Source: an uncultured Candidatus Saccharibacteria bacterium
GTDB lineage: Bacteria; Patescibacteriota; CPR2; UBA1875; CAIMLA01
Reading direction: 5' to 3'
Assembly: GCA_964511435.1 (NCBI GenBank)
Contig: CAZEFH010000001.1
Location: 9,346-73,345, forward strand
Length of the DNA stretch: 64,000 nucleotides
The notes under the pieces were generated by a model. It worked only from the letters and a program-made list of their open reading frames with translations, did no database searches and was not told where the DNA came from. Positions 6,952 through 58,405 of this stretch are shown here, piece by piece. The position numbers were made by a program, and so were the translations under genes. Position 1 is the stretch's first letter, and each line of letters starts with the position of its first letter.

Positions 6952-8835
6952 TTACTCCAGAACAGCTTTTATTCGCCTTACTCCAGAGGAGCTGGACTCC
7001 TCCTTTTTGATGCGGAATTTACCAAGTTCACTGGTATTCTTTACGTGCGGCCCACCACATATCTCTTTCGAGAATGCATCTGTTGAATATAGGTCTCCAC
7101 CGATAGTATATACTTTTACCTTTTCACCATATTTAGAATCAAAAATACCTGTAGCCCCATTACCCTTTGCGTCCTCTACTGTCGTAATAGTTTCAAACAC
7201 TGGTAAATGAGAATTAATTTTGTCATTCACCATTTCTTCGACAGCTTGTTTTTGAACGTCAGTTAGCTTGTCTGGATGAGAAAAATCAAAACGAATTCTC
7301 TCTGATGTGATATTCGCACCACGCTGGCTAACATGTGGCCCTAGAATTCGACGAAGCGCCTCAAGCATCAAATGAGCGGCAGTGTGATAGCGAACTGTTT
7401 GCTCTGAAGTATCCCCTAGGCCGCCTTTGAATTTCTTTTCAGCGCCTTTACGTGATAAATTTTGGTGTTCGGAAAATTCTTTATCAAATTCTGCTTTTAT
7501 TTCGTTAATCTTGTCCGCATCAAATTTGGGGTCTTTAGATAATTCTTCAATCGTCATTTCGTATGGAAACCCATAAGTTTGAAACATATGAAATGCTAAG
7601 CTTTTCTCAAATTTATTGCCCGATAACGATTGCTCACGTCCCTTTTCAAATACCTTTAACCCATTCTCAAGCGTTTTATTAAACTTCTCTTCTTCCTTTT
7701 CCAACGCTGCATAAATAAATTGTTCATTTTCCTGAAGAAGCGGATATACTTTGCCCATTTTCGCGACCACTTCACGGGCAACAGATGAAGTAAATAACCC
7801 GGATATCTCCAAGTTCCGTCCATGACGAATTGCCCGGCGAATCAATCTACGAACTATATAGCCGCGATCGATATTTGAGGGCTCCACGCCTTCGGCAAGC
7901 ACAAAAGTAGCGGCTCTCAAATGGTCAGCTACTATCCTCATCGATTTCATGGTTTCCAGCCAGCAATCAGGCATAGTCTCATAGCCCAAGTCTCCAGGTG
8001 TAAATTCATATTTCTTTTTTGAAAGCTCTTCAATTTTGCCAATGATTGGCTGGAAAAGGTCAGTTTCAAACACAGAGCTTTTCTTTTGAGCAAACATCAA
8101 TTGTCTTTCTAATCCAATACCAACATCTACATTCTTCTGCTCTAGCTTCTCAAATTTACCTTCAGCATTCTTAAAGTACTCCATGAAGACATTGTTACCA
8201 ATCTCCACATACTTATCACAGTCACATGCAGGATCACAACTAGGACTACATTTTGGCAATCCAGTATCGATAAACATCTCTGTATCTGGCCCGCATGGTC
8301 CAGTCTCTGCCGCTGGTCCCCACCAGTTCTCTTTTTTGTCATATTTATAGATTCTATCTGCCGGAATTCCGATCTCATCTTTCCAGGTATTGTATGACTC
8401 TTCGTCAAACGGAGCGTCGTCATCACCTGCAAAAACTGAGATAGATATCTTGTCTTTATCAAAACCCAACACTTTCGTATAAAAATCAAACGTGTAGCGG
8501 ATCGATTCCTTCTTAAAATAATCACCGAGTGACCAATACCCAAGCATTTCAAAGAATGTCAGGTGACAGGTATCTCCGACTTCATCAATGTCTTTAGTCC
8601 TGAGACAAATCTGAGAATCAACTAGTCTCTTGCCAAGTGGGTGCCTCTCGCCCATCAAATATGGTACTAAAGGGTGCATACCGGCTGTCGTAAATAGTAC
8701 TGACGGGTCATTCTCCGGCACTACGGGATATGAAGGAATCGGCGCGTGGCCACTTTCTTTCATAAAATCAATAAATTTTTGTCTTAGTTGTTCTGAAGTC
8801 ATATTATATTTTTTACGAATTTCACTTATTGTCAT
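6952..8835 (-). CDS. alaS: Alanine--tRNA ligase, short form (catalytic plus editing domains, no C-Ala domain)
   Basis: LFTTAGMHPLVPY class-II AlaRS core; editing-domain HTAAHLMLEAL...CGGPHV; only 627 aa versus about 870 for full-length bacterial AlaRS. Confidence 0.9.
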   Translation of the reverse strand: MTISEIRKKYNMTSEQLRQKFIDFMKESGHAPIPSYPVVPENDPSVLFTTAGMHPLVPYLMGERHPLGKRLVDSQICLRTKDIDEVGDTCHLTFFEMLGYWSLGDYFKKESIRYTFDFYTKVLGFDKDKISISVFAGDDDAPFDEESYNTWKDEIGIPADRIYKYDKKENWWGPAAETGPCGPDTEMFIDTGLPKCSPSCDPACDCDKYVEIGNNVFMEYFKNAEGKFEKLEQKNVDVGIGLERQLMFAQKKSSVFETDLFQPIIGKIEELSKKKYEFTPGDLGYETMPDCWLETMKSMRIVADHLRAATFVLAEGVEPSNIDRGYIVRRLIRRAIRHGRNLEISGLFTSSVAREVVAKMGKVYPLLQENEQFIYAALEKEEEKFNKTLENGLKVFEKGREQSLSGNKFEKSLAFHMFQTYGFPYEMTIEELSKDPKFDADKINEIKAEFDKEFSEHQNLSRKGAEKKFKGGLGDTSEQTVRYHTAAHLMLEALRRILGPHVSQRGANITSERIRFDFSHPDKLTDVQKQAVEEMVNDKINSHLPVFETITTVEDAKGNGATGIFDSKYGEKVKVYTIGGDLYSTDAFSKEICGGPHVKNTSELGKFRIKKEESSSSGVRRIKAVLE

Positions 8836-9084
8836 AAGGGTATTTTAGCAGTAAAACGCTCTTATCTCAATACACGAAAGTCCTTTCGGACGGGCGCCCT
8901 TAGGCGCCCGTCCGGCCTAGACCACTCGGGACCAGCGCTTCCGAGCAGCAAGGTTCACGCAGGCGCGCCTGAAGCGCCGCCTCTGATCACCCGACAAACC
9001 ACCGATGTTGTCTCGATAGAACTTCTTGAGTTCCTTCCGAGTCCGAACCATTCGAAGACGAAACCACAGCATACAGCTGCCTCC

Positions 9085-9555
9085 CTAGTCGATGAGCCCC
9101 TTTTCTTGGAGCTCCCTTACTTCTTCCATGGAATAGCGAATGCTCGGCTCAAACTCAGCAATTCGAGCTAGAAGCTGTTGCTTTCCAGGATATCTAGACG
9201 GAACAGACTTGAGAGTCTTACGAAGCCGAATGACTTCATTTCGTGCCTCAAGCCCCTCCAGTCGCCAAATCAGAACAAAGCACTCGCGAACGTACTGGAT
9301 TCTCTGGTGATAAGCCGCTTCTCGCTTCCGACGCTTTGCCTCCTCCGGGTCTGCCTTGACGATAGCTTGCGGACCCAGAACCTCGATCCGTGATTGCTGA
9401 TCACGTTGACGTATGGCCGTAGCAACTCTCTGTGACTCTTCTCGACTATACCACGGGAAGTCGTTACTCACTCCCGTAAGGGTGCGCGTCCCCATATGAG
9501 GGAAGCAGTGAAACCCTCTTGTGCCGGCTCCGATGGTCGTTGAAACATCGATCAT
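9085..9555 (-). CDS. Hypothetical protein (156 aa) in GC-rich island
   Basis: Intact ORF with strong RBS (GGTAAGGAGGGAGC-ATG) and promoter-like TCGACA-N15-TATAAA upstream; markedly higher G+C than flanking genes; basic/charged composition; no family recognised. Confidence 0.55.
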   Translation of the reverse strand: MIDVSTTIGAGTRGFHCFPHMGTRTLTGVSNDFPWYSREESQRVATAIRQRDQQSRIEVLGPQAIVKADPEEAKRRKREAAYHQRIQYVRECFVLIWRLEGLEARNEVIRLRKTLKSVPSRYPGKQQLLARIAEFEPSIRYSMEEVRELQEKGLID

Positions 9556-9747
9556 TAGCTTCCCTCCTTACCAGACTCGCCTGCTGACTTGTCTCACGGG
9601 CATTTTATAGCAAAATCGACGTCTTGTCGATGCTTTTATAAGGACGAAGGCCACGCGCGCTAATGATGCACGGTGGCCTTCAGTTTGCGGCATAGCCGCT
9701 ACCTACAAACGATGTCTTTCCTGACATAGAACGGGTGCGCCCCCTCA

Positions 9748-9993
9748 CTAGTTGAAGTACAGAAGCTTCGCGCGTTCGATCGTACGGCGTTCCTCCGCGG
9801 CAGAGGCGAAGAGATTCTTCATCGCGCTTCTGGCATTGCGGAGCTCTGCTGCGGTGCCCTCGTTCTGGACCAGTAGCCGAGTCCGCTCCGCCTTGAGCAA
9901 GCGGATGAGCGCCTTCGCCTGAGCTGGAGTGACCCCCATCTCCCGAACCAGAGTATCATCGACAAGCTCCTGGACGCTCGACATCGTTCTCAC
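9748..9993 (-). CDS. Hypothetical small protein (81 aa) in GC-rich island, possible DNA-binding/antitoxin-like
   Basis: Intact ORF with GGGAGGTGAG RBS; preceded by a perfect 9-bp inverted repeat (10033-10056); helical, Arg/Ala-rich; no confident family. Confidence 0.5.
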   Translation of the reverse strand: MRTMSSVQELVDDTLVREMGVTPAQAKALIRLLKAERTRLLVQNEGTAAELRNARSAMKNLFASAAEERRTIERAKLLYFN

Positions 9994-10103
9994 CTCCCTT
10001 CCAGGGAAGTCGTAGGTACGCCGATATGCAAACGGATCCGCATTCTAGCGGATCCGAGTAAACTACATATCTGACGCCTATATTGTAACACTTCGGTCAA
10101 TGG

Positions 10104-11255
10104 TTATATAGTAGACACGATGATTCCCCCACCGAGTAGTTCTTCGTCTTGGTAGAAAACAACTGATTGTCCAGAAGTGATGGCTTTTTGCGGCTCAGTA
10201 AATTTAACTGTGATACTATTTGTTTTCTTTTTGGTAATTTCACACTCCGCAAGTTCAGCTTGATATCTTATTTTTGCCTTACAGTGGAAAGGAAATTCAA
10301 CTGGATTTACCCAATGCGGATTTTCAACTATAAGTCCTGAACCATAAAGCTCGTCTTCAGGACCGATAATTACTTCGTTTTTATCGACATTCAGTCCTGT
10401 AACATACATTACTTCAAAAAATCCCCCACCGAGACCCTTCCTTTGCCCAATTGTGTAGAATGGAAGGCCATTATGTCGACCCAAAATATTCCCCACCGAG
10501 TCGACTATGTTGCCCGGTTTTGCCTTCACTTTCCCAGTCAGAAACTCTTGAGTGGTCGTCATTACAAAGCAAATGTCCTGACTTTCGGTTTTCTGTGCTG
10601 TCTTGAGACTATATTTTGCCGCCAGTTTTCTGGTTTCGGTCTTTTCGAGCTCTCCGATTGGAAATTCGACACGTGCCAGCTGCTCCTGCGTTAGGTTGTA
10701 AAGGAAATAGGACTGGTCTTTTGTTCGATCAAGACCTCGCAGTAATTTGTATCTGGTAGTTGGTAGTTCGCCCCTTTCTGCGTCATTCCTGGTCGTACCC
10801 GTCCGCTCCGAAGCCTTTGGCGAAGGCGGAAGCCAGGAATCCATTCCCTTTTCTTGGACCCCAGCCTGTGATGGGGTGACGGGGATGGAAGAAACCCTTA
10901 CATAATGTCCGGTCACCAGCTTATCGGCACCTATTTTCTGGGCTTCTTCCAGCAACCGTCCAAACTTAATCAACCGATTACAGCGTACACACGGGTTGGG
11001 CGTCATACCAGCTTCGTATTCCGCGATAAAATCATCAATTATCTCCTTTTGGAACTGCTTTCTTAATTCAACAATAAAATGTTTGATACCAAGCTGTTCG
11101 CAAACGTCCCTCGCATCATTTATTACATCTTCATTTCCCAAGAGGTCCATAGTCAAACCGATGACACCATCCTTGCCATATTTCTCAACCATCAGCGCGG
11201 CAGCGACCGATGAGTCGACTCCTCCACTCATAGCAACTGCTATCTTACAATTCAT
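10104..11255 (-). CDS. mnmA: tRNA-specific 2-thiouridylase MnmA (carries a roughly 45-aa GC-rich in-frame insertion)
   Basis: PP-loop SGGVDSS, catalytic CVRCN, GHYVRV...LLRGLDRTKDQSYFLY; insertion SSIPVTPSQAGVQEKGMDSWLPPSPKASERTGTTRNDAERGELPTT lies between conserved blocks. Confidence 0.85.
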   Translation of the reverse strand: MNCKIAVAMSGGVDSSVAAALMVEKYGKDGVIGLTMDLLGNEDVINDARDVCEQLGIKHFIVELRKQFQKEIIDDFIAEYEAGMTPNPCVRCNRLIKFGRLLEEAQKIGADKLVTGHYVRVSSIPVTPSQAGVQEKGMDSWLPPSPKASERTGTTRNDAERGELPTTRYKLLRGLDRTKDQSYFLYNLTQEQLARVEFPIGELEKTETRKLAAKYSLKTAQKTESQDICFVMTTTQEFLTGKVKAKPGNIVDSVGNILGRHNGLPFYTIGQRKGLGGGFFEVMYVTGLNVDKNEVIIGPEDELYGSGLIVENPHWVNPVEFPFHCKAKIRYQAELAECEITKKKTNSITVKFTEPQKAITSGQSVVFYQDEELLGGGIIVSTI

Positions 11256-57872: not shown

Positions 57873-57887
57873 ATATTTTGTCCATAA

Positions 57888-58405
57888 TCAAAAATGACCC
57901 TATGGGTCATGAGTTAGTAAGGTTAACGCGGGGAGATCGCGACGGTGTCGGGCAGCAAACCCAACCAGTTCTTCGTCGCGATCTCCCACGAAATCCGCAT
58001 GCGCCCCTTCCTCGAGTATGGGGTCGCGCCTGTCGCGGGTGGTTTCCAACCAATGGAGTCAGGAGCGCTATTGCGACTGGCTCGGAAGGCCTTATAGCCA
58101 CCACTTAAACGGCAAACATGCAGATCTTGCGTCACGGGAGTGACTAGAGCTTTGCTTCAACTAGGCGACTTCGTCTCATCAGGCTCACCTGACGAGCTAC
58201 CCCGTCCCTTACGTTTCGCTGTCTCCAATCCCGTCCCGTATCTCACAGCAGTTTCGCTCTTGGCGGTTGCTCACAATCCTCTTTACGAGGACGCCTCAGA
58301 CCATGAATCGTCTGGACAGTGTAAGCTATTAAGGTTTCACCCCCGCGGTAGGCTATTCGCTGCTGTTAGAATCTAGTTGTCAAACTGTCGTCTTAGACGA
58401 CAATG
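57888..58405 (-). ncRNA. Candidate large structured non-coding RNA or long regulatory leader (class unknown), GC-rich
   Basis: Minus-strand consensus promoter (TTGACA 58435-58440, 17-nt spacer, TATAAT 58412-58417) and intrinsic terminator (stem ATGACCC/GGGTCAT 57895-57911 followed by a T-run on the minus strand). The region is much more G+C-rich than flanks, full of long stems (e.g. 13-bp GGGAGATCGCGACG/CGTCGCGATCTCCC), and carries only R/P-rich pseudo-ORFs. Confidence 0.5.

Follow-up and report, generated by a model that had tools for sequence, protein, structure and literature searches.

In an uncultured Candidatus Saccharibacteria bacterium, the genes mnmA and alaS are separated by a short GC-rich stretch, which occupies positions 8836–10103 of the 64,000-nucleotide (nt) piece of contig CAZEFH010000001.1 that we analysed (hereafter the window, to which positions refer unless another sequence is named). 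A sequence-only reading had suggested acquisition of this stretch from a high-GC donor and had likened its two small genes to a toxin-antitoxin or regulator-effector pair. The account that we judge probable, while leaving considerable room for doubt, is a different one: the stretch would hold an ancient, vertically inherited orphan gene, p78, with a structured mRNA, beside a slot in which genes turn over, and would be neither a recent import nor a toxin-antitoxin pair. The stretch is made up of two adjacent parts, a conserved p78 module and a variable cargo slot, a division that we draw because p78 is present in every lineage compared while the gene between p78 and alaS varies.

The GC content of the stretch is 54.4%, against 44.4% across the 64-kilobase (kb) window. 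In sliding bins of 1268 nt (mean GC 44.4%, standard deviation 2.3%), the ten richest bins all overlap positions 8836–10103, the top bin included. In 200-nt bins, the GC fraction climbs from 0.40 to 0.52–0.60 around 8836 and drops from 0.54 to 0.375 around 10103, which bears out the abrupt shift described earlier at both edges and gives the stretch the sharp-bordered, atypical composition expected of a recently acquired island. On the minus strand the genes run in the order mnmA (11255..10104), p78 (9984..9748), an open reading frame (ORF) of 156 amino acids (aa; 9555..9085), an ORF of 51 aa (9072..8917) and alaS (8835..6952), with mnmA and alaS identified by the Pfam families listed for the orthologues in one related genome (L001, see below). 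The spacer between p78 and the 156-aa ORF is 192 nt long, and the stretch also includes the alaS promoter (8870..8842).

We compared the locus with that of four further lineages: a Saccharibacteria metagenome-assembled genome (L001), a Patescibacteria metagenome-assembled genome (L005), a short JGI contig (L003) and a group of JGI contigs (L008–L011). In all four, p78 lies directly after mnmA, and alaS comes next wherever the contig extends far enough. The order is mnmA, p78, a 129-aa orphan and alaS in L001; mnmA, p78, a radical-SAM gene and alaS in L008–L011 (a 338-aa radical-SAM protein is described for L008–L010); and mnmA, p78 and alaS, with no cargo, in L005. L003 represents a fourth version of the locus. 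A recent island would be expected to be absent from the same locus in relatives; instead, all four have p78 together with its untranslated regions, and only the cargo part differs.

The p78 gene (9748..9984, minus strand) encodes a 78-aa orphan protein with four predicted helices and an isoelectric point of 8–9.8. Of the two minus-strand ORFs proposed earlier, the 156-aa ORF stands as described; the other exists as an 81-aa frame (9993..9748) starting at GTG 9993, a start that we dismiss because all orthologues and the public annotation use ATG 9984 and because the GTG falls within the Shine-Dalgarno (SD) sequence. The ratio of nonsynonymous to synonymous divergence (dN/dS) is 0.07–0.17, and synonymous divergence (dS) between the main lineages is saturated at 1.4–1.9. 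As judged by this substitution pattern, p78 is a real protein-coding gene under purifying selection, which disposes of the alternative that the conserved entity is an RNA element instead of a protein, though the untranslated regions do hold conserved RNA structure. Amino-acid identity is 72–74% between the window and the other lineages and reaches 96% between L001 and L005, and the ranking of the lineages is the same as that given by the flanking genes, which argues for vertical inheritance of p78 since their common ancestor. The aromatic C-terminus, (K/L)LYF, is invariant, and the AlphaFold model consists of four helices (predicted local distance difference test score, pLDDT, 84.6). The presence of p78 at this locus in four other lineages, its equally elevated GC in them, its saturated dS and a divergence that tracks the neighbouring genes are together at odds with the recent acquisition that had been proposed.

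The composition of p78 bears on its more distant origin. GC content at third codon positions (GC3) is 0.75 in the window and 0.70, 0.71, 0.61 and 0.60 in the other lineages, compared with a background of 0.42 ± 0.04, and p78 is the sole ORF of 66 in the window with GC3 above 0.55. We polarised the differences within two close pairs of lineages, using the remaining lineages as outgroups and handling four flanking genes comparably. In p78, 30 changes run from G or C to A or T (strong to weak, S>W) and 10 run the other way (W>S), as against 265 and 338, respectively, in the four flanking genes (Fisher p = 1.4e-4). The absence of this S>W excess from the flanks indicates that p78 is out of compositional equilibrium and is drifting toward the host value. 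The simplest reading is that p78 was acquired from a much GC-richer source before the lineages split and is still ameliorating. Thus, of the earlier proposal of acquisition from a high-GC donor, a foreign, GC-richer origin is plausible given GC3 and the loss of GC, while recent import of the whole stretch is not. The Lawrence-Ochman model describes such amelioration of ancient horizontal transfers, and p78 resembles the cases it addresses in having a GC3 far off the genome value and a substitution excess toward host composition; it differs from them in that no donor or homologue can be named and in that the anomaly has outlasted synonymous saturation, which calls for a very GC-rich source or some selection.

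The extended -10 element of p78, TGTTACAAT (10082..10090, minus strand), is aligned with TATAAT at all orthologous loci. It has no proper -35, and we infer its promoter status from the alignment because a consensus scan did not call the -10; the claim that each of the two genes has a promoter-like element of its own holds for the 156-aa ORF and, for p78, only as far as this extended -10. The leader that follows contains two hairpins. The first, P1 (10020..10075, minus strand), spans 56 nt (-30.7 kcal/mol, z-score -5.0), and its start probably coincides with the mRNA 5' end or lies close to it. The 9-base-pair (bp) inverted repeat noticed earlier ahead of p78 is present at 10033–10057 and is the upper part of this longer hairpin. 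The lower stem of P1 is conserved in sequence, while the sequence of the 9-bp upper stem is fully replaced between lineages with pairing retained, six of its pairs having undergone double compensatory changes. The 3' arm of the second hairpin, P2 (9991..10011, minus strand), is the SD itself. Good SD sequences had been claimed for both genes and are indeed there (GGGAGG for p78 and AAGGAGG for the 156-aa ORF), and in all five lineages P2 pairs GGGAGG or its equivalent, placing the ribosome-binding site inside a stem.

Covariation across the five sequences supports the leader structure. At its 31 pairs, 95% of cells are paired, compared with 33–49% when the partners are slid, and nine pairs have changed on both sides, values that 0–2 of 500 shuffles reach; such compensatory changes, seen here in five sequences only, are those expected of a structured cis-regulatory leader. 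The leader as a whole folds at z -4.1. Searched with a covariance model of the five leaders, each locus yields a single copy (82–106 bits), and 112 kb of related sequence yield no further one. Rfam gave no match on the GC-rich stretch at E up to 1, and the leader falls in no described RNA family. Its conserved SD-pairing hairpin is reminiscent of SD-sequestering leaders, such as the RNA thermometers ROSE and fourU and the autogenous leaders of small basic proteins, and its long hairpin at the presumed 5' end is reminiscent of the 5' stabilising stem-loops of the ompA type; unlike these, the p78 leader matches no Rfam family by sequence or model.

The 3' untranslated segment of p78 (9682..9747, minus strand) is also conserved and contains GAGGGGGCGC, which is invariant and lies immediately 3' of the stop codon, CAGGAAAGACAYCG, which is conserved further on, and a small hairpin at 9687–9699. 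A small conserved ORF behind GAGGGGG in this region was considered and rejected, as its frame shifts between lineages in the four sequences read. Next comes T1 (9646..9681, minus strand; -26 kcal/mol, z -5.9), a terminator-like GC hairpin with a weak U-tract that is present at all loci with compensatory changes. It corresponds to the GC hairpin previously noted in the spacer and is far more stable than shuffled sequence. From this anatomy we infer that the p78 mRNA is monocistronic and stable and that its translation depends on the opening of P2. In the mechanism that we propose, p78 would have been gained long ago and passed on vertically, its product being a basic four-helix protein; the long hairpin P1 at the 5' end of the short structured mRNA probably stabilises the RNA; P2 would cover the SD, so that translation should require its opening in response to temperature, a trans-acting factor or p78 itself; and T1 would terminate the transcript.

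The second part of the stretch is the slot, whose left edge is T1 and whose right edge is formed by a further conserved hairpin, T2, together with the alaS promoter. T2 (8887..8914, minus strand) is terminator-like, with a weak U-tract, and has 12 perfect pairs (-32.7 kcal/mol, z -5.0), in agreement with the 12-bp perfect GC stem reported earlier. The alaS promoter-like site (8842..8870, minus strand; TTGAGA-17-TAAAAT with TG) comes from the consensus scan. A similar site ahead of the cargo (9602..9630, minus strand; TCGACA-17-TAAAAT, 10/12 match to consensus) aligns with the alaS promoter of L005, in which T1 is followed directly by the alaS promoter. Cargo-bearing genomes have one promoter copy on either side of the cargo, which offers a simple route to cargo loss through recombination between the copies.

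What occupies the slot differs from one lineage to the next, and the interval from the p78 terminator to the alaS promoter is a single insertion point with four content states: the 156-aa ORF of the window, the unrelated 129-aa orphan of L001, the radical-SAM gene of L008–L010, directly downstream of p78 and specifying a protein with a CX3CX2C motif and a Cys-rich C-terminus, and nothing in L005. The cargoes share no DNA or protein similarity with one another except at their ends. The idea that the window or L001 cargo is a degenerate radical-SAM remnant was rejected, since DNA and protein similarity are lacking and N-terminal similarity is at chance level. The 82 nt comprising T2 and the alaS promoter are 88% identical between the window and the end of the L009 radical-SAM locus, despite the unrelated genes upstream. 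Recombination at the flank is evident in this sister lineage, in which L010 (1–3258) and L008 (3967–7224), strains from different samples, are identical over 1034 nt of mnmA and have a single mismatch across the 1.8-kb islet, followed by 29 (26 of them synonymous) in the first 630 nt of alaS, with onset 30 nt inside the gene. The alaS edge is a sharp recombination breakpoint, in the sister lineage rather than in the window.

A search for mobility signatures gave none: the flanks lack direct repeats and att-like sites, no tRNA lies closer than 35 kb, and the genes called within ±10 kb in L001 include no recombinase family. Saccharibacteria are naturally transformable, which we take as the setting for recombination at the slot. 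As we picture it, the slot between T1 and T2 with the alaS promoter would gain and lose unrelated cargo genes, which would be swapped by homologous recombination, with the conserved flanks and the paired promoter copies as the sites of exchange. Flexible genomic islets and defence hotspots likewise have a fixed site between core genes (here mnmA and alaS) with unrelated or no content in relatives, atypical composition and a recombination breakpoint at the flank. Unlike them, this slot is tiny (0–1.3 kb, one gene), is without integrase, tRNA, att repeats or mobile-element genes within 10 kb, and is anchored on one side by a conserved orphan of the same odd composition in a reduced Saccharibacteria host. 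Complementarities of 10 nt within the GC-rich stretch were set aside as being at chance level. The leaders of the second gene in L009 (560–721) and L003 (965–1080) are homologous, with hairpin stems that differ yet pair (GACTGCA/TGCAGTC versus CCTATCA/TGATAGG), and this homology suggests that L003 probably also has a radical-SAM-type cargo with its own structured leader.

As had been surmised from the sequence, neither protein of the stretch matches a known family. Pfam, PHROGs, NCBIfam and PADLOC yielded no meaningful match for p78, the 156-aa protein or the 51-aa protein; family and homology searches with the fused 212-aa frame (see below) and the 129-aa protein yielded no significant match; PDB sequences, phage genomes, plasmids and viral contigs contained nothing for the proteins of the stretch; and fold searches with the p78 and 156-aa models returned no significant structural neighbour. 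For the 156-aa protein, a word-indexed search of 5.8 billion clusters found no relative, and none of 1.84 billion representative proteins proved a true homologue in an exhaustive HMMER search, the two formal matches being long repeat proteins with 7–15 low-scoring stretches each, which we regard as noise. An ANTAR match of p78 (14 residues, 15 bits) and a phrog_20158 match of the 156-aa protein (E about 1e-3) lie beneath any safe threshold, and a tblastn match in Erwinia jumbo phages was discarded because it fell on the non-coding strand of an annotated gene. A donor homologue, which a recent island would lead one to expect, was identified for neither protein, p78 not having been searched exhaustively. 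The actinobacterial donor suggested earlier is unsupported, because nothing similar to the 156-aa protein was present among the 1.84 billion representatives or elsewhere in the databases searched.

Several points weigh against an old p78 module beside a turnover slot. The comparison covers five lineages only, two close pairs among them, so that the covariation and polarisation counts are small, and parsimony polarisation with saturated outgroups may overcount S>W changes in GC-rich sequence; given both, some selection for GC may act on p78 besides decay. With no -35 at p78 and weak U-tracts at T1 and T2, transcription may run on from mnmA or continue into the cargo. The source of the cargo is accounted for by no recombinase, repeat or donor, and at the L010 breakpoint it may be alaS that was imported and not the islet that was exchanged. 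For the 156-aa ORF, which has no orthologue, the case for coding depends on the SD, the promoter, the ORF length and a confident fold predicted from one sequence. Finally, p78 homology was sought by word-indexed search and not exhaustively, and remote homologues that would assign a function may exist.

In our preferred account, the window cargo would encode a helical orphan protein of 156 aa and may be what an amber codon has left of a 212-aa gene. The serious competitor here, which we nevertheless think unlikely, holds that only p78 is functional and that the 156-aa and 51-aa ORFs are debris of a 212-aa cargo hit by an amber mutation, or chance ORFs. The 51-aa ORF (8917..9072, minus strand) is very basic, has GGGAGG 7 nt ahead of its ATG and is in frame with the 156-aa ORF (9085..9555, minus strand), the gap between them being a single TAG plus four codons; the two may have been one 212-aa gene that an amber codon now interrupts, or may be separate genes. 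The window is probably free of assembly error here, because an independent Logan assembly of the same run is identical. Besides this shared frame, the lack of any homologue for the 156-aa protein and the complete loss of cargo in L005 fit the notion of debris, and long ORFs arise more easily in GC-rich DNA, with ~0.1 ORF this long expected in the slot by our estimate. What speaks for a functional gene is the strong SD (AAGGAGG) and the 10/12 promoter site, together with an AlphaFold model in which the N-terminus is disordered and residues 70–156 (the C-terminal 87) are helical at pLDDT ~90 from a single sequence. Moreover, residues 1–33 are collinear with the first 25 residues of the L001 129-aa cargo, a score reached by 7 of 2000 shuffles, the remainder of the two proteins being unrelated. 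The 12-nt palindrome pointed out earlier, CAGGCGCGCCTG, is present (8960–8971), and we give it no weight because ~0.3 such palindromes would be expected by chance in 1.27 kb by our estimate.

A rather improbable alternative concerns p78 itself: its high GC would be kept by selection on RNA structure, the ~430-nt p78 transcript would be a dual-function RNA that acts as a structured regulatory RNA and also encodes the small protein, and composition would be silent on origin. In AT-rich genomes, a GC-rich island is classically a mark of structured RNA, and it is in keeping with this that GC3 of 0.60–0.75 persists at saturated synonymous sites, that the untranslated parts on either side of the coding sequence are both structured and conserved, and that GAGGGGGCGC is predicted to pair with an invariant segment of the p78 coding sequence. 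Recent substitutions in p78, however, run 3:1 toward A/T, unlike those in the flanking genes, which argues for decay of GC rather than its maintenance. Predicted pairs inside the coding part are mostly invariant or broken, with little covariation, no Rfam family is matched, and the unrelated cargo genes are GC-rich as well, which favours a shared foreign history.

We are similarly doubtful that the slot is a conflict hotspot, with fast-turnover anti-phage or host-interaction effectors and p78 as their conserved regulator or helper. Unrelated orphan cargoes at a fixed site between core genes, an N-terminal segment common to two of them and a weak match of the radical-SAM cargo to a prokaryotic viperin model (21.5 bits) would suit such a role. 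The viperin match is limited, however, to the generic radical-SAM core, and the C-terminus resembles a Cys-rich twitch/SPASM-type domain; PADLOC matches neither p78 nor the 156-aa or 129-aa protein, and p78 is retained without cargo in L005. A more ambitious version, which we consider distinctly improbable, would make p78 and the slot a cargo-exchange module of epibiotic Saccharibacteria, in which a gated p78 regulator or chaperone serves interchangeable effectors, some with a ~30-residue N-terminal tag, for phage or host conflict; in a weaker variant, the p78 transcript itself would be a new dual-function structured RNA.

Very little credence attaches to the reading of the stretch as a foreign island, recently received from a high-GC, actinobacterial donor, whose two genes would be a toxin-antitoxin or small regulator-effector pair. 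Atypical GC and GC3, two small adjoining genes with good SD sequences and the ongoing loss of GC in p78 are what such an import would show, and two small neighbouring genes on the same strand, the first small and helical, do recall type II toxin-antitoxin loci. This reading is largely refuted by synteny, given p78 at the same locus in four other lineages at saturated dS and with host-like divergence. The pairing of the genes fares no better: unlike type II systems, which form tight operons whose members are conserved jointly, the 156-aa ORF is set apart from p78 by the 192-nt spacer with its strong hairpin and a separate promoter, and the partner is unrelated or absent in relatives, p78 standing alone in L005. 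Searches of Pfam, NCBIfam, PADLOC, PHROGs and PDB sequences, like the fold searches, place neither protein among known toxins or antitoxins, phages, plasmids and viral contigs hold no match, and the 156-aa protein has no homologue among the representatives searched. Least credible is that p78 is the substrate, akin to the precursor of a ribosomally synthesized and post-translationally modified peptide, or the partner of a radical-SAM enzyme since lost from the window, for although the radical-SAM gene lies directly downstream of p78 in L008–L010 and p78 ends in an invariant aromatic (K/L)LYF, the two genes are neighbours in a single clade, and three other lineages have kept p78 in the absence of the enzyme. 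Precursor and maturase would be expected to be consistently adjacent and co-transcribed, but here the genes are set apart by a terminator hairpin and by a promoter and leader that belong to the radical-SAM gene, and p78 matches no precursor-peptide family.

An old p78 module next to a turnover slot implies that, in a reduced Saccharibacteria genome, a sharply bounded GC island is no proof of recent import, as the anomaly here persists past synonymous saturation while visibly decaying. p78 defines a lineage-restricted orphan family, its covarying leader, outside known RNA families, is a candidate new cis-regulatory motif, and the tiny turnover site by alaS could be used for studying gene gain and loss in these epibionts. 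These findings leave current understanding unchanged, and we regard their interest as modest.

The genes on either side of the stretch have features of their own. The alanyl-tRNA synthetase specified by the window (6952–8835) is 50–52% identical to those of three related lineages, which are 83–89% identical to one another, and neighbouring genes are 82–92% identical; on these identities, alaS has probably been replaced by a divergent copy in the window lineage. The alaS -10 (TAAAAT) ends 6 nt ahead of the ATG at 8835 and there is no SD, an arrangement shared by L001, L005 and L009, and for this reason the alaS mRNA is probably leaderless. The window MnmA contains a ~41-residue in-frame GC-rich insert, IPVTPSQAGVQEKGMDSWLPPSPKASERTGTTRNDAERGELPTTR (about 10760–10895, minus strand), that is missing from three orthologues and resembles translated small palindromic repeat elements; the window protein is also without a 12-residue Cys-containing segment (CYG..SCCSLD) found in those orthologues.

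A second GC-rich stretch of the window lies at 57880–58380 (52–59% GC), where ORFs overlap in every frame and none stands out as a gene. The minus strand of this stretch folds at z -4.4 and ends in a hairpin and U-run beside an ABC-transporter gene. It matches nothing in Rfam and no tRNA or tmRNA, which makes it a candidate for an unclassified structured RNA. In L003 (420–465), and in this lineage only, a short hairpin element, ATTCCCGCGGAGGCGGGAAT, with flanks CGTCATT/AATGACG, separates mnmA from the p78 promoter and looks like a miniature inverted-repeat insertion.

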